A stretch of 64,000 nt of DNA, taken from assembly GCF_964204645.1 (NCBI RefSeq), contig NC_134032.1, positions 6,746,275-6,810,274 of the forward strand, read 5' to 3'. This stretch comes from Tubulanus polymorphus. Lineage: Eukaryota; Animalia; Nemertea. The position numbers and the translations under genes are program-made. Positions 6,949 to 56,189 of the stretch are shown piece after piece. Position 1 is the stretch's first letter. Each line of letters starts with the position of its first letter. The notes below the pieces were generated by a model. That model was not told the DNA's origin and ran no database searches. It worked only from the letters and a program-made list of their open reading frames with translations.

Positions 6949-7781
6949 TAAAAATGTACTCTGAAAAAAAGAATATTCTCTATTTTGTTATGTCATTGAA
7001 GATTCTCTTCTATGGTTCTGCCAACGCAACTTCTTCTAATTTTGATTCCATGTGTGAATTTGTATAATTGATTTGCATTTGCAGGTATGAACTTGTATTG
7101 AATATTCAAACATTTATGTCCATTTGAGGATTATGAGTGTCCATAGATGGAATCAGGTTTCTTTTTAACGTTTTCATTACACTTTGATGTGTTGTCTTGA
7201 TGCCTTTCCTAGGGGCATCGTATAATTTTTATGGACTTTTGCTTTACTGAAGTCCATTTTTGCTCATGTTGGTACAAAATAAGTTGCGAAAGAAGCTTAG
7301 TTTCTCATCTGAACTTTCAAAATGTTCAATGGTGATCTATCAGCTAGATGATATGTCCAACATGACAGCCATGTCTGCCATCTTGAATTTTTCATTGGCA
7401 CCATACAGCCTGCCAACCTATATTGATTTCCTTGACCCTGGTGTATTAGCACGTAAGAGGTCTACCCCTATTAGAATTGGTGACCACCAATTGTCTAATA
7501 TTGCTGCTATATTATCCAATGTATGATTTTCTTCATATTCAATCATTAGCACTGTCACATGTTATATACCTGTAGAAATCTGTGACTAATGAGTATACTC
7601 TACACCAGGGGAGTTGAAAATTTGAATACATTACTACGTATTAGTCAATTTTTATGAAAACCATGTTATGTATTGATAATGATGTTAAATGGCACTTTGT
7701 CTACAAGGTATATATTGATTCCCCTATGTAGATTCAGTTACTTTCGATTTGAGGAATTTCTATCAACCTCAGGTACATGTA

Positions 7782-8239
7782 AGTAATAGGGGTAATAGGC
7801 TTTCAGATCAAAGGTCGAACGGTCGAGCTCGTAAAAAATGAAAAACATAAAAATAATTACAATTTCTACTTGAATTACTCGCGAAACTCATAAAAATGAA
7901 AAATAAATTCTCACACGCTCGAATTTATTTTTCATTTTATGAGTTTCACTCCTAATTCAAGTAGAAATTGTAATTATTTTTACGTTTTTCATTTTTACTC
8001 ACCCGCCCGTTCAACCTTTAACCCGAAAGCCTATTACCCCTATTACTCTTAAAATATTCATATATATATGAATAACATTTAAATCATTGAACTTCTAAAA
8101 TCAATTTTAATAAAAAATATAGTATTAAAATGGAAGCAAATAAGTACTACTGCCCAACATGTAAGATAAATATAGATAAGTCTCAAAAAGCAAGACACAA
8201 TAAAACTAAAACACATTTAGAGAATAAATTGAAACTAGA
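7782..8239 (+). repeat. Left TIR of Polinton; includes 266-bp internal palindrome 7782-8047 and the first ~36 codons of pPolB
   Basis: Reverse complement of 25626-26082 with three differences seen by eye (7805, 7983 and a 1-nt indel near 8210). Confidence 0.97.
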
Positions 8240-11200
8240 GTATAAAGATGATATATTAGAAACTAAATTAGAAGAATTAAAGAATGAAAAAGAAACATAT
8301 AAATGTGATACATGTAATCAATCATTCAGTGATAAAAGATATTATAAAGAACATTTAAAATCTATAAGTCATATTAGAAATAAGAATAATGATATTTTAG
8401 GTGAAGATTATTTTGATAATGATAACGATAAGAAACAGAAGACAATTAAAAGAATAAAAAATAAATTAAACAATAAAAGAACATATATGGAAGATGTAAG
8501 AAATTATATTAATTCATTAGATAATAAAAAAGATATAGAGATAACCGAAGCATTTAAAAGTGATATTGGTCCAGCAGCTATCGAGTTTAAATTTCATAAA
8601 GGAAAAACAATAGAAGAAAATAAAAAACATTTAGAAAATATGAAAGAAATAATAAAAATAATTACAGATGTTGAATATCCTAAAATTAGTATATCAGTTA
8701 AAGTAAAGTTTATAAAATCTGAAGATAAACCAATATATAATATAAATTCTCATTCACAACATATTATATCTAAACAACATATAGATGATAAATTAAATAA
8801 ATGTTATAATGAAGTAAAAACTAAAATAGAAGAGAAATATTTTGAAGGATCTGGTTTAATATTTGATGAGATAATATTTATAACTTTACATGTTTATAAC
8901 ACAAAATATAATAAGTTAACTAAATCAGAACCAATTGATGAAAATAATTTATCATATTATAAAGAACCTGATATTGAAGCATCGAGTTATATTAAACTAC
9001 CATTTAAAACTAATGCTGTAATAAATGTACAAAATTTTGATGATAAATGTTTACTATGGACTATAATAAGTTGTTTACATCCTGCAACTTATAATATTTG
9101 TAGATTAACTCATTATAAACAATTTGAAAATAATTATAAGATAGATAAGTATCCTGTTAGAATTAAAAATATTCCAAAAATAGAAAGAGATAATAATATA
9201 AAGATAAATGTATTTGATTTAATCAAATTACCAAATACAAAAGGAAATAATATTAAACATTATACATTAGAACCTTTATACCTATCAAAAGATTATGATT
9301 CAAATGATGTTATAGATATACTATATTATGAGAATCATTATATGTGGATTAAACAAATAGATTTATTTTTTAGAACAGAAAGTGATCACCATAATAAAAT
9401 ATATCTTTGTAGAAAATGTTTACATAAATTTAGTAATGAAAGTACATTATTAAATCATAAACAACTATGTGATAATCATGATTATTGTAAATTAGTTTTA
9501 CCAAATGAAAAAGATAAAATATTAGAATTCAAAAAATATGATTACAAAAATAAAGTACCATTTGTAATATATGGAGATTTTGAATCATTAAATAAAGAAT
9601 TAACAGATAAAGATAGAAAAGATATATATTATAAAAGAAAGAAATTAAATTCTAATGAAAGTGATTATTCAGATCCTATAATAACAAATACTATTAAAAA
9701 AATTCATCAAAGTGCTGCAGCTTTCGGGTTATATATTAAATCTGATTATCCAGAACTAATTGAAAGTGAATATTATAATTACAGAAATGAAAATGTTATC
9801 AATCATTTTTGTGACTTATTAATTGAATATGAAATAAGATTTAGTAAATTATTGAATACAAATAAAGAAATAATTATGACAGAAGAAGATAAAGAAGAAT
9901 TTGAGTTTGCAGATAAATGTTATTATTGTAATCAAGTATTCTATTCATCTGATAAAAAGGTAAGAGATCATGATCATTTGAATGGAAAGTTTAGAGGCGC
10001 GGCACATGAGAATTGTAATTTGCAAGCAAAGAAAATCAATTTTGTCCCCATTATATTTCATAATCTATCAGGATATGATGCACATTTATTTATCAAACAG
10101 CTATGTTATAAAATAGAAGAAATCAATAATGAAATAGAAATATTAAATTCAAATAGATCAAAAGATAAAATACCAACTTATAAATTTAGAATGTTAGCTA
10201 AAACATCTGAGAATTATATATCATTCCAATTTGGTTGTCTAAGATTTATAGATTCATATAGATTTTTAAATAGTTCATTAGATAACTTATCAAAATCATT
10301 AGTTGATGATGAATTAAAGATATTAAAAGAATATTACCCAAATAATGATGATTTTAAATTAATGAGATATAAAGGAGCAATTCCATATTCTTTCTATAAA
10401 AATCATAATGATTTTAACATAACTGAATTATTGAAAGAACAATTTTATGATGAATTAAAAAATGAATATGTTAAAGATGAAGTCTATAATAGAACATTGA
10501 ATATTTGGAATCATTTCAAAATAGAAAATCATGGGCAATTAGTAGATTTATATTTAAAATCAGATGTATTATTATTAACCGATATATTCGAAAGGTTTAG
10601 AGATGTAAACCTAAAATATTTTAACATTGATCCTTGTCATTGTTATTCATCACCAGGATTAACATGGGATTGTGGATTAAAATTTACAGATATAAAAATG
10701 GATTTGTTAACAAATATAGATCAATTATTATTATTTGAAAAATCTATAAGAGGAGGTGTTTCAGGTGTATTGGGTGATAGATATTTCAATGTAAATGATA
10801 ATCCTGGATATAAATTATTATACATAGATGCAAATAATCTTTATGGTTGGGCAATGATGGAACCACAACCTTATGGGATGTTTGAAATAACTGAAGTTTT
10901 ACAAATTGATAAATTTGATTGGAAGAAAAGAATTCTAGATATTGCAGATGATTCAGATACTGGTTACTTCTTTGTTGTAGACTTGGAATATCCTGAACGT
11001 ATTAAATTCAAATCTAGAAATCTAGCATATTGTCCCGAACATAAAACTGTTAAACATGAAGAATTATCAAATTATCAAAAAAGAATTAAACCCGATAATC
11101 ATATTCATACTGAAAAGTTAATGGTAACTCAAGAAGATGAATATAATTACGTTGTGCATTATAGAATGTTGAAGTTTTATTTGAGACAAGGAATGATATT

Positions 11201-12152
11201 AAGAAAAGTACATAGATATATTTCATTCAGTCAATCTAAATGGTTAGAAAAATATATAGATTTTAATACTACACAGAGAACTAAAGCTAAAACTGATTTT
11301 GAAAAAGATTTCTTCAAGTTAATGAATAATGCATTCTATGGTAAGACTTGTGAAAATATTAGAAATAGAAATGATATCGAGTTAGTCAGTAATGGTAAAA
11401 GAATTAGACATTTACAATCATATCCTAAGTTTATAGGTAACAGAATATTTGATGAAAATTTAGCTGCAGTTAAGATGAGAAGAACTTCAATGAAATTTAA
11501 TAAACCGATTTATGTTGGAGCTGCAGTTTTAGAATTATCAAAATTACTAATGTATGAATTCTATTATAATATATTACAACCTCATTTTGGGGAAAAACAT
11601 ATTGAAATATTATATTTTGATACAGATTCTTACATATTAAAGATAAAAACTGATAACATAACTGATGATTTAAAAACATTAAAACACCATTTTGATTTTA
11701 GTAATTATCCAAAAAATCATGAATTGTTTAGCAATGATAATAAAAAAGTTCCAGGGAAGTTTAAGGATGAATTAGGTGGTGAAGAAATGATAGAGTTCAT
11801 TGGTATTAGATCTAAAATGTATAGTTATAAAACTAAAACTCATGAATCAAAGAAATTGAAAGGAATTACCAAAAGCGTTGTTGAAAAGAATATTCATTTC
11901 AAAGATTACATCAATTGTATATTTAATGAAGAAGTTAGAAAACATAAAATGAAATGTTTAAGATCTGAAGATCATGAAATGTATATTGAAGAGATAGAGA
12001 AGATAAGTCTAAACCCATTTGATGATAAAAGATATATATTAGATGATGGTATACACACAGTCGCGTATGGTTGCAATTTAGATGAATATATAAAATTCAA
12101 AAGAGAAGAAACAAAAGAAAATGAGATTATGAAAAGGATTCTAGCGTGTTAA
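8130..12152 (+). CDS. pPolB: Protein-primed family B DNA polymerase with N-terminal C2H2 fingers, TP/vOTU-like region and inserted endonuclease VII (HNH)-like domain
   Basis: Intact 1340 aa. Exo I YGDFES, Exo II FHNLSGYDAH, Pol A YIDANNLYG, Pol B KLMNNAFYGK, Pol C YFDTDS. EndoVII-like CYYC...DHDHLNGKFRGAAHENCN. Zn fingers CPTC..H..H and CDTC..H..H. Candidate protease dyad DDKCLLW / NHYMW. Confidence 0.97.
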   Translation: MEANKYYCPTCKINIDKSQKARHNKTKTHLENKLKLEYKDDILETKLEELKNEKETYKCDTCNQSFSDKRYYKEHLKSISHIRNKNNDILGEDYFDNDNDKKQKTIKRIKNKLNNKRTYMEDVRNYINSLDNKKDIEITEAFKSDIGPAAIEFKFHKGKTIEENKKHLENMKEIIKIITDVEYPKISISVKVKFIKSEDKPIYNINSHSQHIISKQHIDDKLNKCYNEVKTKIEEKYFEGSGLIFDEIIFITLHVYNTKYNKLTKSEPIDENNLSYYKEPDIEASSYIKLPFKTNAVINVQNFDDKCLLWTIISCLHPATYNICRLTHYKQFENNYKIDKYPVRIKNIPKIERDNNIKINVFDLIKLPNTKGNNIKHYTLEPLYLSKDYDSNDVIDILYYENHYMWIKQIDLFFRTESDHHNKIYLCRKCLHKFSNESTLLNHKQLCDNHDYCKLVLPNEKDKILEFKKYDYKNKVPFVIYGDFESLNKELTDKDRKDIYYKRKKLNSNESDYSDPIITNTIKKIHQSAAAFGLYIKSDYPELIESEYYNYRNENVINHFCDLLIEYEIRFSKLLNTNKEIIMTEEDKEEFEFADKCYYCNQVFYSSDKKVRDHDHLNGKFRGAAHENCNLQAKKINFVPIIFHNLSGYDAHLFIKQLCYKIEEINNEIEILNSNRSKDKIPTYKFRMLAKTSENYISFQFGCLRFIDSYRFLNSSLDNLSKSLVDDELKILKEYYPNNDDFKLMRYKGAIPYSFYKNHNDFNITELLKEQFYDELKNEYVKDEVYNRTLNIWNHFKIENHGQLVDLYLKSDVLLLTDIFERFRDVNLKYFNIDPCHCYSSPGLTWDCGLKFTDIKMDLLTNIDQLLLFEKSIRGGVSGVLGDRYFNVNDNPGYKLLYIDANNLYGWAMMEPQPYGMFEITEVLQIDKFDWKKRILDIADDSDTGYFFVVDLEYPERIKFKSRNLAYCPEHKTVKHEELSNYQKRIKPDNHIHTEKLMVTQEDEYNYVVHYRMLKFYLRQGMILRKVHRYISFSQSKWLEKYIDFNTTQRTKAKTDFEKDFFKLMNNAFYGKTCENIRNRNDIELVSNGKRIRHLQSYPKFIGNRIFDENLAAVKMRRTSMKFNKPIYVGAAVLELSKLLMYEFYYNILQPHFGEKHIEILYFDTDSYILKIKTDNITDDLKTLKHHFDFSNYPKNHELFSNDNKKVPGKFKDELGGEEMIEFIGIRSKMYSYKTKTHESKKLKGITKSVVEKNIHFKDYINCIFNEEVRKHKMKCLRSEDHEMYIEEIEKISLNPFDDKRYILDDGIHTVAYGCNLDEYIKFKREETKENEIMKRILAC

Positions 12153-12180
12153 TCAACTTCAATAAAAATTTGTATAATAA

Positions 12181-12522
12181 ATGGAGAGTAAACAAGTACA
12201 CAGTGAATTCTTAGATAGAATTAAAGATACTTCAAGCGTCAAATCTGTAGATTATAAATTCAAAAAGTTAACAGAATTAACAATCCATAAGAAATATCTA
12301 ATTACAAATATTGATACAGTTGCTAACAAATATGGAGATAAATTAGTTATACACTTAGAATATGAAGGATTAAAAGGAAATACATATAAATTCAGAACAT
12401 ATTTACCAGATAGATTTCATAGATTATCAAGTGAAGATCTAGAAGAATTATGTTCTGGTGATTTCTATTTCGTATACAAAGGTAAGAATGAAAAAGGTCA
12501 CCATGAAATAGATTTCGAATAA
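12181..12522 (+). CDS. Small Polinton protein, possible OB-fold ssDNA-binding protein
   Basis: 113 aa directly after pPolB; beta-strand-like pattern KYGDKLVIHL..YLPDRF..FVYKG. The fold is an inference. Confidence 0.55.
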   Translation: MESKQVHSEFLDRIKDTSSVKSVDYKFKKLTELTIHKKYLITNIDTVANKYGDKLVIHLEYEGLKGNTYKFRTYLPDRFHRLSSEDLEELCSGDFYFVYKGKNEKGHHEIDFE

Positions 12523-12539
12523 GAAAATATGTAAAATAA

Positions 12540-13295
12540 ATGGTAGAATTAAAAGAATACAGAATATTTGTAGATTCTAGAAAACTTACAAATTATAAAT
12601 CACATAATTTATTAGTACAATTAGATAGAGAATTCAAAAATTGTGTAGATTTAAAATTAGTTAATATAAGTTTATGTAATTCTTTTTACAATGTATCGGA
12701 TAAAACTTTTGAACATAGAGGGTTTATGATTTATATGAGAAATAAAGATAAATGGTTTCATATATTTTTAAAACCAGGATTATATAATTTAGAATCATTA
12801 GCGCAGGAAATTAATAGAAGAGCTCGGTTGAAAATCGGGGGCACTTCTGTATTTGAAATTAAATTTAATAAAATTGATAGTACTAATAAAATTAGAATAA
12901 AGATATCTAATGAACAACATAAATTTATGGTAAACAAACCACTGGCTAAAATGTTAGGAATTAAACCGCTTACAGTTACTGGAAACGCAGAAGGTAGCTC
13001 AAATATAATACCTTTTACACACTTTTATATTTATTGCAATTTAATCGAGCCTACAAAAACTTTCGAAGCAACTAAAGAAACAATTTGTAATTCTAGTATA
13101 CTAAATATTTTACCGCTAAAAAATGTTAAACAATTTGGAACTCAAATAAATTATAATTTAACAGAATGTGATTTTAAACCATGCATTCCTAAATTTAATA
13201 ATTCTAAATTAGAAATTAGAAATCAAAATGGATATTTAATTGATTTGAATAACTTTCCTGTGATATATGAATTAGTTATAAGATGTAAAGAGTAA
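12540..13295 (+). CDS. Minor capsid protein (penton, single jelly roll)
   Basis: 251 aa; FYIYCNLIEP...ILNILPL...LEIRNQNGYLIDLNNFPVIYELVI matches the Polinton penton C-terminal pattern. Confidence 0.8.
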   Translation: MVELKEYRIFVDSRKLTNYKSHNLLVQLDREFKNCVDLKLVNISLCNSFYNVSDKTFEHRGFMIYMRNKDKWFHIFLKPGLYNLESLAQEINRRARLKIGGTSVFEIKFNKIDSTNKIRIKISNEQHKFMVNKPLAKMLGIKPLTVTGNAEGSSNIIPFTHFYIYCNLIEPTKTFEATKETICNSSILNILPLKNVKQFGTQINYNLTECDFKPCIPKFNNSKLEIRNQNGYLIDLNNFPVIYELVIRCKE

Positions 13296-13311
13296 TTTTT
13301 TCACTATATAA

Positions 13312-13659
13312 ATGAATATAACTGTCGGACCGAGTATATGTTTTGGATTTGATTTTAAACGTGAGAAAGAAATGAAATTTAACGTTAATGATGTAATTAC
13401 ACATATTAAAAATATTGCATTTTCTAATGAAACAACATTTGAGTATGAAACAACAATAGATAAAGAAACTTTTAATGTAGAAAAGATTACTGAGTCTTTA
13501 AGATTTTACGAATTAGATGAAGATTTTATCATCGATGATATTAAAAAAATAATAATTGAAATATATGATAATCATAAAACTAGTAATGAAATAAATGTTG
13601 AATTAATCATAAATAAGTTAACTAAATATTTTGAAGATAATAATTTCTTTGATAAATAA
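13312..13659 (+). CDS. Hypothetical Polinton protein
   Basis: 115-aa ORF with TATAAATG start, tightly packed among viral genes. Confidence 0.7.
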   Translation: MNITVGPSICFGFDFKREKEMKFNVNDVITHIKNIAFSNETTFEYETTIDKETFNVEKITESLRFYELDEDFIIDDIKKIIIEIYDNHKTSNEINVELIINKLTKYFEDNNFFDK

Positions 13660-13881
13660 ATGAGTGATAATAAGTGGATAATAACTGGATTATATAATGG
13701 CGCATTACTATCAGTTGGAACTGTTGGTTATTCAATGGTATTAAAAAAAGTATTCAAAATGGGAAGTGTTAATGTTGATAGATTTGATATAAATGATATT
13801 TTAAAGTTAACATTAGCAGTTACTTTATCTAATTTAACTATTGATTATTTGGAAAAACAAAAATATATTCCTCCCATATAA
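13660..13881 (+). CDS. Small hydrophobic (putative membrane) Polinton protein
   Basis: 73 aa with two hydrophobic segments; start abuts the upstream stop (TAAATG). Confidence 0.7.
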   Translation: MSDNKWIITGLYNGALLSVGTVGYSMVLKKVFKMGSVNVDRFDINDILKLTLAVTLSNLTIDYLEKQKYIPPI

Positions 13882-13905
13882 ATGCATAATTTTTTTGCTA
13901 AATAA

Positions 13906-14328
13906 ATGGCTTCTGCAATTATAACTATTATAGGATCGGCAATTGTTAACGCTTAAGCATTTACTGGTGGTGGTTATTTATTTAAACATATTGATAAAAA
14001 TAGTTCATTAGGAGAACAAAGAAGACATAACTTAGCGTTAGAGAAATACAATAAAGCTGCAGAAGAATATAGAGAAAAGAGGCAAAACTATATGGATTAC
14101 ATCAATAAAGAATTATATGGTCAGAAGATTTCACATAGAGATTTTCAATCAGTTGATGATGCAATGAGTTTATATAACGCAGTAACAAATAAAGAAAAAT
14201 TACATCTATACAAACCTAAATTATCAGATTATTATACCCCGAGTAAAGAACAACAGAAATATGAAATAATTTGGATTTTAGGTGGAACAGTTATTGTTAT
14301 ATTTGTTGCTTATAAATTTACTAATTAG
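13906..14328 (+). pseudogene. Polinton membrane/coiled-coil protein with premature stop
   Basis: ATG 13906 MASAIITIIGSAIVNA*AFTGGGYLF...EQRRHNLALEKY, in frame with ORF 14092-14328; TAA at 13954-13956; C-terminal TM segment. Confidence 0.8.
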
Positions 14329-14347
14329 TAATTTTTATTCTAAATAA

Positions 14348-14780
14348 ATGGAAGATAAAGTTGATAATATTGATATTATTCCTCATGATATAAATAAAAC
14401 TAAATTAAAAACATTTAGAAAAACAAATATTAGAATTTGAAAGTGACTTAAAGATAAAAAAGAAAAAATATTTAAAAAGTAAAATTATATATTATTTGAT
14501 TATAAGTGGTTCGGTTACAATTAGTTCTGTAATAACATTTCTAGCAATATTCAGTCCATTAACACCTTTAGCTATATCAATTGGTGTGTTAGGATTAAGT
14601 TCAAGTGTTTTAACTGGTATAAGTTCAAAATTAAATATAAAAAGTAATAAAGAAAAAATTAAAACTAATATAAAAGAAATTAATAAATTAAAGAATACAC
14701 TAGATTATATAATAAGTTTAAATGGTCATATAACAGTTGAAGAACAAGATAAATTATTAAAAGAATTAATAAATTATTAA
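14348..14780 (+). pseudogene. Frameshifted Polinton membrane protein
   Basis: AATAAATG start at 14348 (MEDKVDNID...); frame shifts near 14410-14430 into the hydrophobic ORF 14496-14780. Confidence 0.7.
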
Positions 14781-14796
14781 TTTTTTAATTATATAA

Positions 14797-16098
14797 ATGG
14801 GGTTTCCAAAAGCTTTCCAATATAATAAATCAATTAAATATAATATTCCGGCAATAGATTTTAAGAAAAATATTACATATAAAAATGTAGTTTTAAATTC
14901 ATTAACTAATTTAGAAATTTATGTTAATGAATCACAGTTTTTTATTTCTAAAATGGAAAATATATTTAATACATATGAAGTTACTTTTACTCGAGATGAA
15001 TATCATATATATAAAGTAAAATCTAATATGAAATATTGGCAGAATCAATTAAATTTTGCTGTTTATTGTGCAACAACAGGTTGTGGAATTAGTTGGAATG
15101 ATCATTTAAATAACTTAGATAAAAATTTGAAGTATTCTGATTTAAAATTAATTCACACAATATTTAGATTTCACACATATTTTCAAATCAGAATAATATT
15201 AAATGAATTAGAATGTCCTTTACCCGGGTCTAAATATTTTAAAGAATTAGATAATAATATTAATATATCCAAGTTTTATAAAATATGTAATGAATTTAAT
15301 ATAAATATTAATTCCGATTTCAGAGCGCATGGTAAATTGCAAGGTGTTGGTGAAGAGTATGAAATAAAAAGAATTGATTATATGCATAGAATTTCAGCTT
15401 ATCATAATTATAAAATTGATAATAATAATGGTTGGGTTAATTTCATTTTAGAAAATGGTGAAGGTTTTACAAAATCAGGTATACAAAGAATAAATCAATC
15501 TATTAGAATTTATTTGATATGTATTTTAGGCGCTCAAGTTGAAACAAGATCCCCAATAATTGGAAATGATAACACTTCATTCGATGCGCAGAAACAGTTT
15601 AAAGTTTTATTTGAAGATTCCATACATGATGATAAAAATAGATCGATTCCAGAAAACATTATAAGATATCAAAATTATTTAGATAAATCTCATGTAAGAC
15701 TTAATTATTGTATAGGCCCTAATCTATTAATTATTTCTAATGATTTAGTATTAAAGATGGGAAACATAATTGGTTATAATAATCTAATTAAAACTGCAAC
15801 AATAAATAATTCATTTGGATTAAATGATATAAATAAAAAGATTATTACTGCTCCAAAATTAATGGAAGGTGAAAAAAATAAAAAACATATTCAATCAACT
15901 GAAACTAAAACTAATAATATTAAATTAAATAATGATTCTAAAATAAAAGATTATAATACATCAGAAAATATAAAAACTGATAATATTCAACATGATATAA
16001 TTAAACTAAATGATGATAATAAATCCCATGAAAATACTAAATTAGCTATAACTTGTATAGGAATTGTAATCGGAGGAATATTATATTTTAAATTTTAA
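14797..16098 (+). CDS. Hypothetical Polinton protein with C-terminal TM anchor
   Basis: Intact 433 aa; motif YWQNQLNFAVYCATTGCG; hydrophobic C-terminus. Confidence 0.8.
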   Translation: MGFPKAFQYNKSIKYNIPAIDFKKNITYKNVVLNSLTNLEIYVNESQFFISKMENIFNTYEVTFTRDEYHIYKVKSNMKYWQNQLNFAVYCATTGCGISWNDHLNNLDKNLKYSDLKLIHTIFRFHTYFQIRIILNELECPLPGSKYFKELDNNINISKFYKICNEFNININSDFRAHGKLQGVGEEYEIKRIDYMHRISAYHNYKIDNNNGWVNFILENGEGFTKSGIQRINQSIRIYLICILGAQVETRSPIIGNDNTSFDAQKQFKVLFEDSIHDDKNRSIPENIIRYQNYLDKSHVRLNYCIGPNLLIISNDLVLKMGNIIGYNNLIKTATINNSFGLNDINKKIITAPKLMEGEKNKKHIQSTETKTNNIKLNNDSKIKDYNTSENIKTDNIQHDIIKLNDDNKSHENTKLAITCIGIVIGGILYFKF

Positions 16099-16114
16099 TT
16101 TTTTTATTATATAA

Positions 16115-17574
16115 ATGGATGAAGAAATTCCATTGGATACTTTTGGTGACGCCCCTGGTATAAGTGATGAACCACAAACTGATTTTAATGAAACTAATAT
16201 TGATAATGATGATGAATCAGCATATAATTCTAATTTAGCAGATAGTGGTTCTAAAGCCCCATCAACAGATGAATTTGATAGAAGAACTAGATCAAGAATA
16301 AATCCTGAAAATGAAATTCCAGGTTTATAAAAGGAAGATTTAGAAAATATTGGATTTATATATAAGTTTCAACATGTATTTAAAGATTCTGGATATAATA
16401 TAAATAATAGAGGCGCCAGACTTTTAGTACAAGATTTAAAGTTTTTAGATGGTGAATATTATTATCGTGTGAAAGAAAAATCGGATTATTATATTAATAT
16501 CTCTAATAAAAATCAAGACAAAATAGTAGCAAAATCAACTTTGCTTAAGTCTGACTCATTACTATCTAGAATTAAAAGAATAAGTAATATTATGAAATAA
16601 AAGATGTAACACAAGAAGAAATTATTAAAAATAGAAAAGAATTTAAACAAAGAATTAATGAATTATTTGAAACAATCAAAGATAATCCAGAAACAGAAAC
16701 AACTTCTGAACAGAATATAACTTCCAAAACTAGTAAACTTAAATCAAACACTGAAGTTCAAACTGAAAAACTTTTACCGAATGGATTACTTGATGCAACA
16801 GATCAAGAAATAGAAGCTTTAAGTATGTTTTCTAAAAAAACAATTAGAGAAATAATAAGTATACGAAATGATGCCGATAAAATTGCTCGCGAAAAACATA
16901 TTAGATATAATAAAATTAAACCTTTAGAAAATAAATTATTTGACACCAGAAAAGAAATAGAACAATTAAAATTAGATAGAGAATTTAAAGTTATTGAAGA
17001 AATTGAATTTAAAAAAAGAAATGCATATTTAGAAAAAGAAATTGATGATTTAGAATATAACATAGAATTTCAGAAAGAAAAAATGAAATTATTATTAAAA
17101 TCATACGATTATTGTATCAATAGATTAAAAGTTGTTGTTAAAGAGTTAATACTAAAACCAAATTCTGACATATCACTAAAAGATAGAATAAAATTATTAT
17201 TTAAGTTTGAAGGAATAACAGTTCTTTCAATTCTAACAGCTGTAACTATGTTATTCACAACAATAGGTTTAGCTATATCAAATTCACTGAAATCTACACC
17301 TACTCCAAATAAACCAGATAAACCTCCAGGTAATAATTCTATACAAGATAAAGTTAAAGATGGTTTAAAGAAATTAGCAAAATATTTATGGGAACTATCT
17401 AAAAAATCTGCTGCAGCATTGCCAGGAGTTATTGCTTCAATTGTTGGTTTTATATTGAAATCTGCAGGAAACATTATTAACTTTGCTGCTGAACATATTA
17501 TTTTATTTTTAATTACAGTTGTAAGTGCTATTATTTTTGGTTTAGTGAATATGATATCAAAAGATATCAAGTAA
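16115..17574 (+). pseudogene. Interrupted coiled-coil/membrane Polinton protein
   Basis: TATAAATG start at 16115; TAA at 16328, after which the reading frame continues (KEDLENIGF...); frameshift near 16585 joins ORF 16825-17574 (coiled coil plus hydrophobic helices). Confidence 0.75.
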
Positions 17575-17646
17575 ACCATGATATCAAAAAATATCAAGTA
17601 AACCATGATATCAAAAAATAAATAATTAATTTTTTTTGTTAAATAA

Positions 17647-18894
17647 ATGAGTGGGAGTTATATAAGTCCTTCGAAGAATCATAGAATATCTAATGCTATT
17701 AAAGCAGAAAGATCACATCATATAATTACTCATAACCCTTCAAATATTAATCCCGATGAAACTTTATACGTTAGAATCCCGAGATTAACACAAAATACTT
17801 TTTATGTTCCAAATAGTATTTATTTATCAGCTGATATAAAAGTAATCGGTAATAATAATAATTATGTTGTTGATAATGTTGGAAGATATTTGATTAAAAA
17901 GTTAACAATAAAGATTGGTCCAGAAACAGTTTTCTCATTAGATGATTATAATTTATTTTCACATTATAAAGATTTATGGTTAACTAAAGAAAATAGAAAT
18001 AATATGATATTTCAGGGTATTCAATCAGAAAACCAAAATAAATTAAGATCAGAAGCTAATAGCGCAATATTAACTAATGATGTAGATAAATTGATAAAAA
18101 GTATATATGGAAGCAAATATAAAATTCCATTAGACTTTGAATTGATAAATAATAATGCACCTTTATATAAATACGCAATTCAAGAAGATATTATATTTGA
18201 GATAACATTTGCTCCTGTAAATGAAATTGTATTATCTAGCGTTAATAAAGATATGAGTTATAAATTATCGAATATATGTTTAGAATATGACACAGTAACT
18301 GATGAAAATATTTCAAGTATAATTCAAACTCAATACAATCAAGGGTTTTCATTATTATATGATTATATTGATAAATTTAAAACTGTAACTATTAATGCAA
18401 ATGATGAAATAATTAATGAGAATATTAACTTTCCTAGAAGATCTATTAAAGGTATATTAATATTTTTTACCATTGGAACGTATACTAATGGTGCAATAAA
18501 TGTTGATAATTATTATAATCCTGAAATAACAAAAGTAGAAATAACTATCGAAGGAATAGCGAATAAAATATTTTGTCAAGGAATGAGAATGATTGATCAA
18601 TGGCCAGAAATTAGAAAACATTTTATGAATGAAAAAGTGAAATCATTTGAAAATTGTAACATTAATCAAATTGATTATTATACCGGTAATAAATATGCAT
18701 TATGGTTAGATTTTAGAACAACTGAAGATAATTCATTACATGGTTCTGGAAAAAAACTACAGAACACTAAAGATGGAATACAATTATTCATGATAAAGGA
18801 AAAGGGAATCAAAAATTTTAAAATGCATATTTATATTATATCTGACGCGCAATTAAATATTGTAAATTCACAATTAGATAGTGTTATGTATTAA
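17647..18894 (+). CDS. Major capsid protein (double jelly roll)
   Basis: Intact 415 aa, beta-rich; N-terminal IITHNPSNINPDETLYVRIP and C-terminal YALWLDFRT..LHGSG patterns resemble invertebrate Polinton MCPs; size and position fit. Confidence 0.85.
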   Translation: MSGSYISPSKNHRISNAIKAERSHHIITHNPSNINPDETLYVRIPRLTQNTFYVPNSIYLSADIKVIGNNNNYVVDNVGRYLIKKLTIKIGPETVFSLDDYNLFSHYKDLWLTKENRNNMIFQGIQSENQNKLRSEANSAILTNDVDKLIKSIYGSKYKIPLDFELINNNAPLYKYAIQEDIIFEITFAPVNEIVLSSVNKDMSYKLSNICLEYDTVTDENISSIIQTQYNQGFSLLYDYIDKFKTVTINANDEIINENINFPRRSIKGILIFFTIGTYTNGAINVDNYYNPEITKVEITIEGIANKIFCQGMRMIDQWPEIRKHFMNEKVKSFENCNINQIDYYTGNKYALWLDFRTTEDNSLHGSGKKLQNTKDGIQLFMIKEKGIKNFKMHIYIISDAQLNIVNSQLDSVMY

Positions 18895-18926
18895 AATTTT
18901 AACTTTAATAAAAATATATATAATAA

Positions 18927-19841
18927 ATGGAAGGAGGTAAAGTATATGAAAGAATCAAAGCTGATAAAGAAATCAATGATGATTTGTATTATGTAATACC
19001 TTATAAAAGAATAAATGAATATATTGGAACATTTTTATTAAATGAATTAAATCAATACAAAGAATATTTAATTGAACGTAATAATAAAAGTGGTGTTGTT
19101 AATAATAGTGTAATTGATAATAATGTAATACCTACTACACCTGTAATACCTACTACTACATCTGTAATACCTACTACATCTGTAATACCTACTACATCTG
19201 TAATACCTACTACATCTAATAATAGAATAATATTAGATGTTAGTGAAAATAGAAATTATTGTGGTTATTGTAATGGTGAATTTTCAAACGCTCCATCAAA
19301 TTGGAATAAACATATGAATACAAAGGTACATATTACTAATGTTATAGAACGTGTTGGTTTAAGAGAATTTATAGAACACCCATTTAGATATGTTACGAAG
19401 TTTGTTTCAAATCAAAAAGTAAATGGTAAAGAATTATATAAAGATTTTTTATTAGCAACACCTAATAAAGATGAATTAGATTTAACCGATGCTAATGAAA
19501 TATTAGGATCAAATATTGTAAATGAAATATTAGGAGCAAACACTAATAAAGATGATAATGAAAATGATGCCGCCATACGCCCACATGGTGATATAGTTAC
19601 AGATAAACATATTGATAATAAAGATTCTATGAAACATAAAGAAGAAACTATTGATGATATAATAGAAAGGATGAATAAGTTTAAAAATGAAACAACTATT
19701 GATGATGCGGTAAAAAGGGTGAAGAATAAGTATAAAAATAATGAAGAATTTGAAGAAGAAAATTCGGTAGAGCATTTAAATATGTTGTTAGGGTCTGATA
19801 GTGAAAGTGATTCAGAAAGTAATTATCTAACACTCGAATAA
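18927..19841 (+). CDS. Hypothetical protein with (VIPTTS)n repeat, C2H2-type Zn finger and acidic tail
   Basis: 304 aa; 18-bp coding repeat at ~19125-19218; CGYC..HMNTKVH. Confidence 0.75.
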   Translation: MEGGKVYERIKADKEINDDLYYVIPYKRINEYIGTFLLNELNQYKEYLIERNNKSGVVNNSVIDNNVIPTTPVIPTTTSVIPTTSVIPTTSVIPTTSNNRIILDVSENRNYCGYCNGEFSNAPSNWNKHMNTKVHITNVIERVGLREFIEHPFRYVTKFVSNQKVNGKELYKDFLLATPNKDELDLTDANEILGSNIVNEILGANTNKDDNENDAAIRPHGDIVTDKHIDNKDSMKHKEETIDDIIERMNKFKNETTIDDAVKRVKNKYKNNEEFEEENSVEHLNMLLGSDSESDSESNYLTLE

Positions 19842-19896
19842 TAAAAGTTGAAAATTTTATAAAATAATAGTAAATAAAAAAAGGTTTTGATTATTT

Positions 19897-20022
19897 AAGG
19901 TATCTAATAGGGTATCAGGTATTAGGGCATCTAATGGAGTATTAGGTATTAAGGTATCTAATGGGGTATTAGGTATTAAGGTATCTAATACATAGGTATT
20001 AGGGTATCTAATACATAGGTAT
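19897..20022. repeat. ~24-27-bp self-complementary tandem repeat at the convergent gene junction
   Basis: About 5 units of AGGTATCTAAT(GGGGT)ATTAGGTATTA between the stops at 19841 (+) and 20031 (-). Confidence 0.85.
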
Positions 20023-20030
20023 ACAAATAG

Positions 20031-20644
20031 TTATTTTATAAATTTATATTCATATGGAAATTGTAATCTCATTAATAATTTTGAACCTCTATTATTCTTT
20101 AATTTATTCATATATTCATCATGTAATTCAGGAGGTATAATTTGATTTTCTTCCAATGATTGTTGCATAGATTTTCTATCTTTGTTGTAGAATAAAACTA
20201 GAAATCTTATATTCTCTCTAAAATCTTTCACAATTGAATTATATTTCTGATTTAAAACCCAAGTTGTTATCCCAAAATGTCTACCAGAGAAAGCTAAATA
20301 ACATAACTCACTTTCTCTAATTTTAGAATCATGTAAATTTGCGCAATCATCAATAATAAATAATGTATTAGATATTTATAAATATCTAATGTAATTTTTA
20401 TACAATTATCTAAATTATCTTTTACTGTTTTAGAATTTAATATAATAAACTTTTTATCTTTAAAAACTATATCTCTATTATACGTTTCATTCATTTCATA
20501 AGTTGGGCAGAATAATATTATATTATCAAAATGATTCTGATAAATAGTTTCTAATAAATCTAATATGAAGTGTGTTTTACCACAATTTGTAACTCCAGTT
20601 ATTAACATATTATGTGGTTCAAATATAAACAAATCTTTATTCAT
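20031..20644 (-). pseudogene. A32/FtsK-like DNA packaging ATPase, frameshifted
   Basis: Walker A GVTNCGKT; after a frameshift near 20372, Walker B LFIIDDCA, then SGRH and NQKY, continuing into ORF 20031-20231. Confidence 0.9.
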
Positions 20645-21725
20645 TTATTCTTTTAATTTTACTAGATAAAATCCATTCATTAAATTTATCATCATATCCT
20701 TTATATTTCACCAAAGAATACTTTTTTCCTTTAAGAGTTTTAGTTTTTAATACCTTTTCTATTTTGTATTCTATTTCATCTGGATTTGGTACTAATGATA
20801 ATTCTTGTTCATAAAAATAACCTAATATTTCTTCATCTTTTAAATCAAACAATTTATAAACAAATGGTTTAGTTAATATTATCTTTTTAATTTTAAAAAT
20901 TTCTTCTGTAAAATTAGGGGTATAACCTTTATAAAATGTTTTTCTATATTTAGAAATTCTAACATGTTGTCCTATTTTAAATTTAGGTTCTCCAAAATCG
21001 TGTGTAACAAATGCTCCATATAAATTATTCCAAACTATTTCTGAATTTTCTTCTTTTCTAGCTTGTATAGGTTTCATATTTATAGAACTATGTTTAGAAT
21101 TATTATAACCTTTCACTAAATCATCTAACACATCGATATATTTATATGTTTCATTAGCGGTGAAATATTTCCACATTCTAGTTTTCAATGTTTTATTAAA
21201 TCTTTCTATAACAGATGCTTTTTTATCTGAATGTGTTGAAAAATATTCTACATCGTTATCAATTAATAGTTTTTTGAAATGTTTGTTATAAAATTCTTTA
21301 CCTTCATCAAATTGTATTTTATCTGGGATAGCTTCTTTAAATATTAATTTGAAAGAATTTGTAACTTCTATACCAGTTTTATTTTTAATCGGGATACTCC
21401 ATGCGTATCTACTGAATATATCTATAACATTTAGTATCCAAAAATATCCTTTGTTATATTCTTCTAAGTTTTTCATATCAATTAAATCAGCTTGCCATTG
21501 TTGGTCAATATATGAAACCATTACTTTTCTTGTTAAATATTTTTTATCCATCTTTTTATGAATTTGATATGTGGGTTGATTTTGTAACCATGATTTTAAT
21601 TCACTATATTTTATATTGCTATTATCAGATTAAATTTTATCCCATAATTCCGAAACACTTGAATATGAAACTTCACTTTCTGGGTTATAATATAACGCTC
21701 TTAAATATTGTTCTTTTTTCATCAT
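20637..21725 (-). pseudogene. Retroviral-like (rve) integrase with C-terminal chromodomain; premature stop in N-terminus
   Basis: DDE triad WQADL / QFDEGKEF / VIERFNKTLK; chromodomain YKIEKVL..LVKYKGYDDKFNEWI. In-frame ATG at 21725 (MMKKEQYLRALYYNP) with TAA at 21632-21630. Confidence 0.92.
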
Positions 21726-21728
21726 ATT

Positions 21729-22136
21729 TTAATCCATTAATAATATTTTAGATTTATTTTCATTTGATTTATTTTCTGGTGGTTTATTGTCTGTACATGG
21801 GTAACGAAGTTTCCGTTCATCATTATCATTATCACTTTCATTATTATTAAATTTTGATTTATATATTACACCGGATAATATAATAACTGTTACTAATCCA
21901 ATTGTAATATATAATTTATAATTACTTCCAGCATTAGAAGAATTAGATGGATTATTATTTGAATCAATACCACCGTGTGGGTGCTGTACGGCACCATCAG
22001 ATAAAGTCTGTGATTCATTTATATCAGTTAATTTCTTTTTCTTAGCTTTTTTTAATTCTGAAGATCTTTTACCTAATTCTCTTGCCCATTTAATTTGTTT
22101 CTCGGATCTAGCCTTTTTCTTAACGCCATCACTCAT
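21729..22136 (-). CDS. Hypothetical Polinton protein, basic N-terminus plus one TM segment
   Basis: 135 aa; AATAAATG start; TM LYITIGLVTVIILSGVIY. Confidence 0.7.
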   Translation of the reverse strand: MSDGVKKKARSEKQIKWARELGKRSSELKKAKKKKLTDINESQTLSDGAVQHPHGGIDSNNNPSNSSNAGSNYKLYITIGLVTVIILSGVIYKSKFNNNESDNDNDERKLRYPCTDNKPPENKSNENKSKILLMD

Positions 22137-22731
22137 TTATTTTAGTTAATTTTTGTTCTGATTCATTTTCTGTTTCACTGTTTGGTTGTAGTACATCTGT
22201 TTCGTTCTTACCTGATTTATATTCCATAGGTTTGATATTCGAAAATGTTATGACGCCAGTAGAAATCAATGTCATAACCGATCCTAATTGAAATGAAGCA
22301 TAACCGACCCATTTTTGTAATTCAGTCATAACTAAGTAGTCATTTTTCAAATCACTATATAATTTATTTTCATCATCAATTGGTATTAACTGGTTACATA
22401 ATTTTGAATAACATTTGACAATACCATCTGAAATAGAATCATTTATTCTAGCTAATCTTGACTCTTCATAAATCTTAAAATATTTTATTACTTTTTCTTT
22501 ATTCATATTATCTAATTCTTGAAAAGTTATTGTTTTACCAATAAACTCTTTAGTTTTTCCACTCGCAATCAATAGTTCTAGATGATGCTTACAATATAAA
22601 TAGTATTCATAATCTATATTGTTATTAACTTGAATAGAATTAGAAACAACTGTATCTTTATTATCACTAATACCCAAATCATCTAATGTCTTTTCAATAT
22701 CAATATTATTCTTATTAGATTTCTTTGACAT
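22129..22731 (-). CDS. Hypothetical Polinton protein
   Basis: 200 aa; T-run followed by TATAAATG start. Confidence 0.75.
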   Translation of the reverse strand: MSKKSNKNNIDIEKTLDDLGISDNKDTVVSNSIQVNNNIDYEYYLYCKHHLELLIASGKTKEFIGKTITFQELDNMNKEKVIKYFKIYEESRLARINDSISDGIVKCYSKLCNQLIPIDDENKLYSDLKNDYLVMTELQKWVGYASFQLGSVMTLISTGVITFSNIKPMEYKSGKNETDVLQPNSETENESEQKLTKINE

Positions 22732-23010
22732 TTATATTAGAGGAAAAAAGCAAAAAAAATATTATAAGTATTCTTCAAATGATACTAGCTAGTTAAAGCT
22801 AAAGAATTCTAGTATTAGTTATTGTTTTTTTAGTATTTTTTATTTGTGATATAAAGTATTCTTTTTTGAAAAGAAAATATTAAAAATATAATAGAATTCA
22901 CAAGCTAGTTGAAGGTATGTAATTTTTATTATATTTTATTTAAATTCTATTTGATATCTCACTACTTTTGTTTATCTATTAGGAGCAGTAGTTATAACTG
23001 TCCAGATAAG

Positions 23011-23685
23011 TCATTTCGGATCCTTGATATCAAATTCCTCAACGTATCGTTCATTATTTGGATTATTATTCCATTGATCAATAAATTTCTTTGCTTTTGT
23101 TAACTGTTCTGAATATAACTGTAAATCTAGTTTATTAGATTTGATTTGATTTTCTTTCTTTTCTAAAGGCCTTAAATTTTTCCAATTCCAAATAAGTCTT
23201 TTATTGTATTCATCATTCATGTTAAATTTAGATATTGGTAACACGTGATCAATATGGTAATAATCCCCATAATTATCTATATTCATTTTATCATCGAATT
23301 GAAATATTATCCATGATTTGAGAAATTCATCTGAACAACCCAATAAATTAGATAGTGTTTCTGAATGTGTTTCTTTGTTGAATAATTGTGTTAATCTAGA
23401 CCGTAAACATTGTTTCAATCTAAAATTAAGATCTGTTTGATATCTTCCTCTCATATATTCTGTCATATAATCATTATAAGATTCTCTATTATCTTCTCGG
23501 TATTGTTTGGTATATAGTTTAAAACAAGTTTTGCAGCAATATTGAAAACCATCTTTGCTAGTCTTGCGCTTACTAAATTCTGTTAATGATTTATCTAATT
23601 CACATTTAGAACACTTTTTGTAATATATGTTTATAACGCCAGTGTTATTTGTAATATTGATAGTTTGTGGTTGTTCTGGTTCCAT
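23011..23685 (-). CDS. Zn-ribbon plus HNH-type endonuclease of the kind common in large dsDNA viruses
   Basis: CSKC..CKTC N-terminal ribbon; YHIDHVLP...WKNLRPL...NQIKSNK HNH-like core. Confidence 0.8.
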   Translation of the reverse strand: MEPEQPQTINITNNTGVINIYYKKCSKCELDKSLTEFSKRKTSKDGFQYCCKTCFKLYTKQYREDNRESYNDYMTEYMRGRYQTDLNFRLKQCLRSRLTQLFNKETHSETLSNLLGCSDEFLKSWIIFQFDDKMNIDNYGDYYHIDHVLPISKFNMNDEYNKRLIWNWKNLRPLEKKENQIKSNKLDLQLYSEQLTKAKKFIDQWNNNPNNERYVEEFDIKDPK

Positions 23686-23799
23686 TTATTATACGTATTT
23701 TTTTATAATCCTCTTCCATTTCTTCGACCAACGTCATCCTTTTTCATTCCTCGCTGCTTTTGATAAGTTGTTTCGATTCCTTGATATCTAAATAATACC

Positions 23800-24148
23800 A
23801 CTGGGCAAAACCGCTCTTATAGGAGCGCTTTTGCTTAATGCGCATGCGTTAATCATAATTATATATTCATTCTGTAAATTCTGTAAAATAGAAACGACCG
23901 ACATAAAATATCAAAACGTGTTCGCACTAAGCAAAACCGCTCTTATTGGAGCGTTTTTACTTAATACGCATGCGCTAATCATAATTATATATTCATTCTG
24001 TAAAATAGAAACAACTGAACATAGAAAATTCAAACGCATGTGCACTAGGCAAAACCGCTCTTATAGGAGCGTTTTTGATCAATGCGCATGCGCTAATCAT
24101 AATTATATATTCATTCTGTAAAATAGAAACGACCGAACATAAAAATTC
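23800..24148. repeat. Three ~118-126-bp tandem repeats, each with a ~30-bp imperfect palindrome
   Basis: GCAAAACCGCTCTTATAGGAGCGCTTTTGC-like units at 23805, 23931 and 24049, each followed by (T)GCGCATGCG-like and TTCTGTAAAATAGAAAC. Confidence 0.9.
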
Positions 24149-24236
24149 ACCAATCAGATTTACACAATACATTATACAAGTATGTTCGATCGTTGTATTG
24201 ACAAAATTTATAGTTTCAACTAATACATTATTTTAT

Positions 24237-25007
24237 TTATAATTCCAACCAGAACTTTTCAATTTCTGGATCATTGTCAAACATTTTTTCAATATCGTTT
24301 AAGTATTTTACTATATCAGAAAATGACAAACTTAAAAATTGGAATCTTTTATATGTAATTAATCTCCCTACACTTCTTAATTTTCTTTCATACCCAGCAC
24401 TAATACCTATATATTTTTTAACCCAAGAAGTCCAAGAAATCCCCGCAGTTTGTTTATTAAACATTAAAAATCCCCTATTTAAACAATCCCCGAAAATGAT
24501 ATAATCCCATAAATGCTTTGCTTTTTTAAATAACAAGGTTCTATAATTTTTTTTCAATAAAACAGTTATTTCATTAAATGATGTTACACCTTCTATTTCT
24601 TTAAAACTTACATCTTTTTCATTTGATAATTTTGATTTTAAAAACTTATTTAACTCATTTCCGCTCATTTTCTTTTTAGTTTTTGTTCCTTTTAGTCTTA
24701 ACAATATTTCTACATTGGTTGTTGGTCTTTTCGGAAATGATGTTACGCTTGATTGCTGGTTTTCTATTATTTTTTCTAAAATTAATGTCATTTCTTGATG
24801 GTAATATAAATGTTTTTTAACTTCTTCTAACGTTTCATCTTCTATATCGAAAGATTCTTTTACTTCAGTACCCATTTCGGTTGGTTCATCTTCCATTTCG
24901 GTTGGTTCATCTTCCATTTCGGTTGGTTCATCTTCCATTTCGGTTGGTTCATCTTCCATTTCGGTTGTCCTCTGAGAATCAAGAGTACTTCTTGATACAC
25001 ACGACAT
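24237..25007 (-). CDS. Hypothetical Polinton protein with (EMEDEPT)n acidic repeat and helical, possibly DNA-binding C-terminal domain
   Basis: ORF open from 25016; first ATG at 25007; 21-bp coding repeat at ~24870-24967. Confidence 0.75.
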   Translation of the reverse strand: MSCVSRSTLDSQRTTEMEDEPTEMEDEPTEMEDEPTEMEDEPTEMGTEVKESFDIEDETLEEVKKHLYYHQEMTLILEKIIENQQSSVTSFPKRPTTNVEILLRLKGTKTKKKMSGNELNKFLKSKLSNEKDVSFKEIEGVTSFNEITVLLKKNYRTLLFKKAKHLWDYIIFGDCLNRGFLMFNKQTAGISWTSWVKKYIGISAGYERKLRSVGRLITYKRFQFLSLSFSDIVKYLNDIEKMFDNDPEIEKFWLEL

Positions 25008-25498
25008 TTTATTCAACTAAAAGATATCAGCGGTAGAACAGGAACCGCGATATTATATGATATAAATATTTTCAAGTCTATCGTTTCTAATTATTATAAC
25101 TTATTATAGTTCAAGTTATTATCTATCTAACGTAAAATAGAATTAACTGTATGAAGTTGTAGTTGTCAAAAGCACTTAAAGGTTTCATATTTAATAGCCC
25201 CAATAACTACAAAAAACAGTACTTACATTTAGATTTATAATTGTAAACTATAAACTCCTAATTTCGTTTCGAAAGATAGAATATCCTGAGCACAATGTTA
25301 CAGCGTATGTCCATTTCCGGGGCGATTTCTAGAATGACACGTCGTTGATTATGCCACGTCATCTAGTTCCGGTTCTAGAATTTTCTCTACACGTTTGTAA
25401 TATTATGTGTCATAATGTCTCGTCGTCATAGTAACAACTGTAACGGCTGTGAATTTATAGATTTATTCCATAGCTCTGTACATTGAATGTATATAGGT

Positions 25499-25734
25499 TC
25501 AAATAGAATCATGTTCTAGTATAAACATCGGATCCTCAACATATTGTTCATTATTTGGATCATTATTCCATAATTCAATAAATTTCTTTCCTTTTGTTAA
25601 CTGTTCTGAATATAACTGTAAATATTCTAGTTTCAATTTATTCTCTAAATGTGTTTAGTTTTATTGTGTCTTGCTTTTTGAGACTTATCTATATTTATCT
25701 TACATGTTGGGCAGTAGTACTTATTTGCTTCCAT
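25499..25734 (-). pseudogene. Chimeric mini-ORF: pPolB N-terminal Zn finger (from the TIR) fused to a copy of the HNH protein tail; 1-nt deletion
   Basis: Restoring one A near 25655 gives MEANKYYCPTC...HLENKLKLEYLQLYSEQLTKGKKFIELWNNDPNNEQYVEDPMFILEHDSI* (78 aa). Confidence 0.65.
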
Positions 25735-26082
25735 TTTAATACTATATTTTTTATTAAAATTGATTTTAGAAGTTCAATGATTTAAATGTTATTCATATAT
25801 ATATGAATATTTTAAGAGTAATAGGGGTAATAGGCTTTCGGGTTAAAGGTTGAACGGGCGGGTGAGTAAAAATGAAAAACATAAAAATAATTACAATTTC
25901 TACTTGAATTAGGAGTGAAACTCATAAAATGAAAAATAAATTCGAGCGTGTGAGAATTTATTTTTCATTTTTATGAGTTTCGCGAGTAATTCAAGTAGAA
26001 ATTGTAATTATTTTTATGTTTTTCATTTTTTACGAGCTCGACCGTTCGACCTTTGATCCGAAAGCCTATTACCCCTATTACT
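25626..26082 (-). repeat. Right TIR of Polinton; includes 266-bp internal palindrome 25817-26082
   Basis: Reverse complement of 7782-8239; followed by TSD CATGTA. Confidence 0.97.
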
Positions 26083-56185: not shown

Positions 56186-56189
56186 TTAA

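Follow-up and report, generated by a model that had tools for sequence, protein, structure and literature searches.

Terminal palindromes of fixed polarity in a Polinton of the nemertean Tubulanus polymorphus

A Polinton of Tubulanus polymorphus carries at each terminus a long imperfect palindrome whose mismatches are arranged so that one strand, that with the 3' end, is predicted to fold better than its complement. The element lies in a window of 64,000 nucleotides (the whole stretch of DNA that was analyzed). The palindrome is a real, conserved end structure and probably has a function. As the best explanation we propose that the genome is protein-primed and that its ends are polarized telomeres formed by fold-back of the 3' strand, with the telomeres of Streptomyces and the left end of MVM as the nearest parallels; the proposal is tentative and falls a little short of being probable. 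The standard Polinton model has no such hairpin end, and the structure bears on how an integrated Polinton regains exact free ends and restarts protein-primed replication.

The element shows likeness to the Polintons/Mavericks (Polintoviricetes), in particular the nuclease-bearing pPolB class of PMC10748475. It has terminal inverted repeats (TIRs), a 6-bp target-site duplication (TSD), an AGT-type end motif (AGTAAT, a variant of the (AGT)2 of PMC8097293) and a length within 13-25 kb. It encodes a pPolB with the arrangement TP-vOTU-exonuclease-polymerase plus an HNH insert, an RVE integrase, an A32 ATPase and a double jelly-roll capsid protein. The coordinates are collected in Table 1.

Table 1. 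Features of the Polinton and of its terminal palindromes (window coordinates)
Feature	Position	Strand	Remarks
Left TSD	7776..7781	.	CATGTA; matching copy flanks right end
Right TSD	26083..26088	.	CATGTA
Whole Polinton	7782..26082		18,301 bp (18.3 kb); low GC, 0.21-0.29
Left TIR	7782..8243	+	~460 bp; takes in first ~38 polymerase codons
Right TIR	25622..26082	-	~460 bp
Left terminal palindrome	7782..8047	+	266 bp; outer arm 7782-7910, loop 7911-7920, inner arm 7921-8047; 3' end on minus strand
Right terminal palindrome	25817..26082	-	same isomer as left; 3' end on plus strand
Outer mismatch cluster	7805..7816	+	partners 8013-8024; 5'-terminal strand A.C, 3'-terminal strand G.T
Bubble 1	7823..7830	+	partners 7999-8006; CTC opposite CTC; 3'-terminal strand tandem GA/GA
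Bubble 2	7878..7882	+	partners 7948-7952; 3'-terminal strand G.G, G.A, A.G, G.T
Apex	7910..7921	+	3'-terminal strand C-GA...GA-G, motif common to distant relatives
Protein-primed B-family polymerase	8130..12152	+	1340 aa; open frame; conserved catalytic motifs
Predicted terminal-protein domain	8520..8912	+	little-finger/PAD fold; Z 8.8, rmsd 2.7, 107 aligned
Predicted vOTU protease domain	8934..9365	+	Z 7.7, rmsd 3.8, 108 aligned
Endonuclease VII-like (HNH) insert in polymerase	9879..10025	+	E 2.5e-4, below Pfam cut-off
Major capsid protein, predicted double jelly-roll	17647..18894	+	best PDB match PBCV-1 capsid, Foldseek E 5e-16
A32-type packaging ATPase	20052..20644	-	two pieces in window copy; PF04665 E 4.8e-6
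RVE integrase with chromodomain	20637..21551	-	PF00665 E 6.6e-9

The Z values of the terminal-protein (TP) and vOTU domains are moderate, but the order of the two folds, little-finger/PAD first and viral OTU second, agrees with the terminal protein plus processing protease described in PMC11071308. The vOTU residues Cys307 and His403 are kept in 42/42 polymerase homologues. An animal host is indicated by the adjacent LINE and Mutator genes and by the few homologues with a named source (insect, soft coral and clam). Ser241 of the TP domain was found in 41 of the 42 polymerase homologues and, by its conservation, is a candidate linking residue. In the Endonuclease VII-like insert the H-x-H and C-N residues are conserved, H614 in 42/42 homologues, and H616 and N630 in 41/42 each; comparison of the insert with PDB sequences gave weak, unrelated rows only. 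HNH and VSR inserts occur in such polymerases (PMC10748475), and polymerase inserts have been viewed as relics of homing endonucleases or inteins (PMC11071308). The capsid protein was assigned from a model (pLDDT 87.8) compared with the PDB by Foldseek, there being no sequence-level match in the PDB. Likeness of the integrase to the protein of a relative starts upstream of the open reading frame, at 21722. An adenain-like maturation protease, present in 74% of Polintons (PMC4028283), gave no Pfam match in 17 ORFs and no match to a protease motif; a divergent one could escape these searches. The element is a Polinton, and one that probably retains protein priming.

Other features of the coding region were also recorded. 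Three 118-bp repeats with small internal palindromes lie between two ORFs of the element (window 23799-24149) and might mark a promoter or small-RNA region. A 224-aa ORF (window 23011-23685, minus strand) has a CxxC pair by eye, no Pfam match at 0.01 and 56% likeness to an ORF of locus L042; it also contains what is presumably an HNH-like stretch. The longer polymerase homologues P0010, P0036, P0039 and P0070 carry PF14890/PF14528 domains, which we take to be the intein and LAGLIDADG families.

Four copies of the terminal 23-mer are present in the window (7782+, 8025-, 25817+ and 26060-), against an expectation of zero from 100 shuffles. As folded in silico, 7782-8047 closes on a 10-nt loop with an energy of -91 kcal/mol (z -22.6), matched by 0/200 shuffles, and the opposite strand reaches -105.5 kcal/mol (z -25.2). 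The strand with the 3' end is predicted to fold better by 11-14 kcal/mol. The palindrome makes up only the outer part of the TIR. A preliminary description of this DNA had proposed a 266-bp imperfect hairpin at both termini, which these results bear out, and the bubbles were found where it had placed them. It had further called the two ends identical and of the same isomer. Both read inward, they are indeed the same isomer, but 2 of 266 positions differ (7805 and 7983).

The mismatches are strongly polarized. Each of the 12 stem mismatches at the right end has G on the 3'-terminal strand (6 G.T, 5 G.A and 1 G.G) and hence C on the opposite strand, and the two additional mismatches of the left end are likewise G.T on the 3'-terminal strand. 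A random-decay null reproduced the 12/12 polarity at 2e-5 (200,000 trials), a significance that is overstated, as the null assumes independent sites and the mismatches cluster. When 14 ends were pooled, the 3'-terminal strand showed 78 G-containing, 15 C-containing and 20 A.A/T.T mismatches, loops counted. CTC stands opposite CTC at both bubbles and at the apex, so that GA stands opposite GA on the 3' strand. In DNA, mismatches that contain G rank as the most stable and those that contain C as the least stable; tandem GA pairs in the sheared form, with strong stacking (PMC8163305). The GA/GA motif is accordingly predicted to form sheared pairs on the 3' strand, while the complementary strand would fold poorly because of its C.T, A.C and C.C mismatches.

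The polarity was consistent across ends. Each end was oriented by the polymerase gene or by internal sequence of the TIR, and a scripted search then placed tandem GA at the apex of the 3' strand in 8/15 ends and at that of the 5' strand in 0/15; there was one off-register hit on the 5' strand, and 7/15 ends were missed. By eye, 10 of 14 ends have an apical GA, the GAA/GA form included. Random inversion would give one polarity at 8/8 ends with a probability of about 0.008. In 3/3 complete elements both ends are the same isomer: besides the window element these are G002:C67 and G002:C9 (L210:291-15427, TSD TAGGAA). The ends were picked for having palindromes and are therefore informative on polarity, not on prevalence.

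Other copies in the species were sampled from one raw Illumina run of another study, of which about 12% was read, and from three contig sets; the raw run was repeated at 94% likeness. The TIR was covered about twenty-fold more deeply than the flank. Reads leaving for unrelated, host-like DNA at 7782 numbered 997 and 618 in two comparisons, whereas no join to host-like DNA at the inner end, 8047, was among the 6 loose ends listed (smallest 241 and 142). A composite transposon or solo mini-element, considered as a reading of these repeats, was rejected for want of inner-end host joins among those loose ends. The 15 joints listed, of which the smallest has about 5 reads, include no strand switch between the outer arm and internal sequence, and no internal-hairpin-internal junction was found among the read joints listed. 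Six reads showed inversion of the centre alone (7892/7938). A further group of reads joins at 8010 (300 and 142 reads in the two comparisons) and has a different bubble region; it could be a bubble-less or inverted subfamily.

The two readings that fit worst can be judged from these data. Poxvirus and asfarvirus telomeres and AAV ITRs are incompletely paired terminal palindromes that occur as flip and flop isomers, and the preliminary description had likened the present ends to them. Covalently closed ends that invert with each round would suit an AT-rich, incompletely paired terminal palindrome, the 8010 read group could be the inverted subfamily, and integration might take one isomer only. 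Nevertheless, polarity was fixed at every informative end, and neither the host joins at the outer arm nor the joints listed yielded an inverted junction. Ends of this type are barely credible here; the incomplete pairing is alike, but the integrated copies show one polarity. The suggestion that a cruciform extruded in the chromosome flags the ends for excision by integrase or resolvase is highly improbable too. The long palindrome does sit at the exact ends, and the element encodes an Endonuclease VII-like domain, of a family that cuts junctions. Both strands of a cruciform must fold, however, and the mismatches of the 5'-terminal strand are all destabilizing. The cruciform is disfavored because the mismatches stabilize one strand only, and neither solo 266-bp units nor inner-end host joins were among the loose ends listed.

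Variation among the copies respects the hairpin. The variants listed number 40, and 31 of them fall within the hairpin, clear of its termini. Compensated pairs account for 16 of the 31 (8 pairs, most of them with matched frequencies); another 6 bring back a base pair, 1 sits at a bulge and 8 introduce new mismatches, which on the 3' strand are G.T or G.A in 7 cases. The reads are 150 nt long and unphased, so that this co-variation of the arms is one of read frequencies and not of linkage on the same molecule. Mirror mapping is an unlikely cause of the matched variants, since only 21/3,759 reads fit two places. In a shorter subfamily a matching unit of ~57 nt is absent from both arms (skips of 58 and 56 bases).

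Related polymerases were collected at 167 loci (26, the best 80 of 557, and 61). Most of these loci end before the element terminus and are therefore silent on whether a palindrome is absent. A clear terminal palindrome upstream of the polymerase was seen by eye in seven (L062, L068, L120, L125, L127, L145 and L173) and a doubtful one in L131. L093, with a clear end and an Endonuclease VII-type polymerase, has no terminal palindrome, and in L051 and L130 motifs resembling an end occur but the palindrome is not complete; related elements thus manage without it. A pattern derived from the ends gave 27 matches in five assemblies, compared with 22 for a reversed control. Fourteen of the 27 form 7 inverted pairs (104-159 bp), one has a decayed inner copy and 12 are unpaired; 6 of the 8 ends so obtained (the 7 pairs and the decayed one) were new. 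A scan of viral contigs with a single polymerase gave no match, and among the loci from terminal-motif scans of viral contigs (15, 14 and 51, each with one motif match, and 13 more) 2/93 were self-inverted, neither being a Polinton end. Assembly G001 contains many contigs with polymerase fragments and without recognizable ends.

Palindromic ends recur in relatives whose arms are unrelated in sequence and whose end motifs and type of polymerase differ. Agreement between arms averages 0.88 within an element, 0.57 between elements and 0.67 within the ACAC type. Arms are about 104 to 266 nt long, and in 7/10 elements position 20 of the inner arm carries an additional base, which is absent from the window's ends. 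The polymerase of L210 is of the PF03175 type, is 24% like that of the window and has no Endonuclease VII match; it bears what we take to be a Vsr-like motif. The palindrome is common to many copies and to distant relatives, and the bubbles are older than the insertion and are not decay, as had been supposed at the outset. The accompanying doubt, that the inner arm might be a one-off fold-back, is removed, as reads from many copies change both arms in step and relatives with unrelated arms are also palindromic.

Several neighboring structures were noted in these loci. At L210:169-465, 8 bases separate one Polinton from the hairpin end of a second, which has a different end type; this may reflect targeting of Polinton ends. 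Between integrase and polymerase at L027:4657-4840 lies a 184-bp palindrome, with ACTACT close to the left edge and AGTAGT close to the right one. It resembles a right and a left end linked by a palindromic spacer, and is possibly a circle or tandem junction. The 110-bp hairpin at L120:338-447 has four CGAG motifs facing pairwise and no Polinton end motif. The 61 loci L122-L182, with Polinton-type polymerases, come from assemblies filed as bacterial or archaeal and are likely host or viral contamination.

The same relatives bear on two further explanations. A signal for packaging or duplex binding, in which the inverted copies and a directional CTCG-type motif serve the ATPase and capsid machinery as double-stranded or folded sites, is decidedly unlikely. 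The capsid module (MCP 36%, ATPase and further ORFs) is common to the three complete hairpin-ended elements, whose polymerases (24% for L210) and integrases (26-27%) diverge; L093, which lacks the palindrome, is closer in its integrase (39%) and has nothing that matches the window capsid protein. This is a comparison of three elements with one, however. L125 and L145 bear hairpins with no capsid gene in view, and duplex binding leaves mismatch stability on one strand only unexplained.

Very unlikely, and already weakened, is a non-adaptive by-product, in which the end was doubled by repeated errors of fold-back copying and became fixed through copying from TIR to TIR, the mismatches arising by deamination on the exposed strand. 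Strand-specific deamination could yield the G.T bias without selection, arm length varies, and the palindrome is absent or decayed in some relatives. Nevertheless, the apical GA/GA and the extra base recur despite unrelated arms, end motifs and polymerases, G.A and G.G require transversions, and compensated pairs occur at matched frequencies among the variants listed.

For the fold-back telomere, the following sequence of events is proposed. A free genome end would become single-stranded through excision or strand displacement, whereupon the 3'-end strand would fold back into a hairpin predicted to be held by G.T and sheared G.A pairs. The hairpin would shield the genome tip. The 3' end could then pair with the inner copy of the origin, so that a polymerase might rebuild nibbled terminal bases from that copy, after which ordinary terminal-protein priming would resume. 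The complementary 5'-terminal strand would fold poorly, leaving synthesis from the far end unblocked and a chromosomal cruciform less favorable. The single isomer would follow from terminal-protein priming, because this copies the end without inversion. Compensated pairs inboard of bubble 1 imply that selection or patch correction is also required, as simple end repair would erase the bubble. It counts against the telomere reading that a 3' end, once paired, lends itself to priming, and that no signal to stop synthesis was identified.

Self-priming with asymmetric resolution, in the style of the MVM left end, is the leading alternative and makes use of that primer. The 3' hairpin would prime a first round free of TP, a cut in one arm would keep one orientation, and later rounds would be protein-primed; the cutter of the closed end or dimer junction is possibly the nuclease inserted in the polymerase. 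Fold-back would set the terminal 3'-OH on a perfect 23-25-bp stem beside an internal template, and the active-site residues of the nuclease are conserved in nearly all homologues (41-42 of 42). The +1 base of the inner arm recalls the GA/GAA spacer that silences one arm in MVM (PMC1185569), and hairpin priming has been proposed for protist elements (bioRxiv 10.64898/2026.07.28.741278). Nevertheless, no HUH nickase was found among the 17 element ORFs by Pfam, the joints listed lack the junction that would be expected, the window's own ends do without the +1 base, and nuclease inserts have been published as relics (PMC11071308). L210 has hairpins but no Endonuclease VII insert, and L093 has the insert but no palindrome; the insert is thus neither required nor sufficient, which also weakens it as a dedicated hairpin resolvase. 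This account is unlikely, yet it is compatible with the telomere and the two are not exclusive. The preliminary description had coupled fold-back to self-priming: fold-back of the 3' strand is favored, and self-priming is possible, but the predicted TP domain is retained alongside.

Endonuclease VII cuts four-way junctions and mismatches, and Vsr cuts T.G pairs. A hybrid cycle can be envisaged in a widespread animal Polinton lineage, in which a sheared-GA 3' hairpin self-primes, a nuclease embedded in the polymerase (Endonuclease VII-like or Vsr-like) opens one arm and TP priming follows. We regard this as rather unlikely. If true, it would bring parvovirus- and adenovirus-style initiation together in one integrating virus and give the nuclease inserts a job.

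In comparison with known Polintons, whose ends are described with short end-motif repeats for jump-back priming (PMC8097293), the window element has its end motif twice per end, inverted, and a long polarized palindrome, and no adenain protease was found. Terminal palindromes are reported for virophages/PLVs of Halocafeteria, a protist host (bioRxiv 10.64898/2026.07.28.741278). These likewise lie within TIRs next to the TSD of integrated elements, and hairpin priming is proposed for them. The example shown there measures 52 nt and the replicases are mostly non-pPolB, whereas the window element and its relatives have palindromes of 104-266 nt, pPolB with a TP domain, fixed polarity and GA/GA. 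The accessible main text of that preprint makes no mention of mismatch, imperfect, flip or orientation; its supplements may bear on the point.

The protein-capped telomeres of Streptomyces have sheared G.A hairpins and fold-back repair (PMC5449611, PMC4513846). Protein-primed ends, a 3'-strand palindrome with sheared G.A and fixed orientation are common to both systems, in the window by sequence and prediction. Streptomyces has several short palindromes (rabbit ears), Tap/Tpg and internal origins, whereas the window has one long hairpin and a B-family polymerase in an integrating element; the resemblance is an analogy and not homology. The left end of MVM/LuIII (PMC1185569) shares a 3'-strand hairpin, a GA-type bubble, a one-base arm asymmetry and one reported orientation. 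Unlike the window element, these viruses have a single-stranded genome, the HUH nickase NS1 and a host polymerase, with no integrase or TP priming.

No such ends are described for animal pPolB Polintons in the accessible portions of PMC8097293, PMC8502044, PMC4028283, PMC10120064 and PMC11296320, or of the preprints bioRxiv 10.1101/2022.05.25.493380 and 10.64898/2026.10.13.758929. Terminal palindromes as such are already known, from protist virophages/PLVs. The polarity, strand bias and GA/GA motif on animal pPolB Polintons were not found in the literature searched and are seemingly new; founding papers or Repbase may hold prior notice. The ends suggest convergence on G.A-stabilized 3' hairpins among bacterial protein-capped linear genomes, parvovirus left ends and these endogenous viruses. 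A strand-specific conserved end with a 13-base motif is amenable to tests with synthetic DNA. Such ends are also likely to disrupt assemblies built from short reads, and annotation is likely to mistake them for small foldback transposons.

The rest of the window is rich in repeats. A tandem array at window 39275-51561 consists of units of ~2,176 bp, 96-100% alike, with DUF1280 and weak PHD-finger ORFs. Satellites of 61 bp and 154 bp occur at window 27528-28565 and 31581-32176, respectively, and the region at 30.0-32.2 kb has inverted partners at 63.1-63.9 kb. The minus strand of window 53936-58931 encodes a Mutator-like transposase and a LINE endonuclease/reverse transcriptase split over two ORFs.
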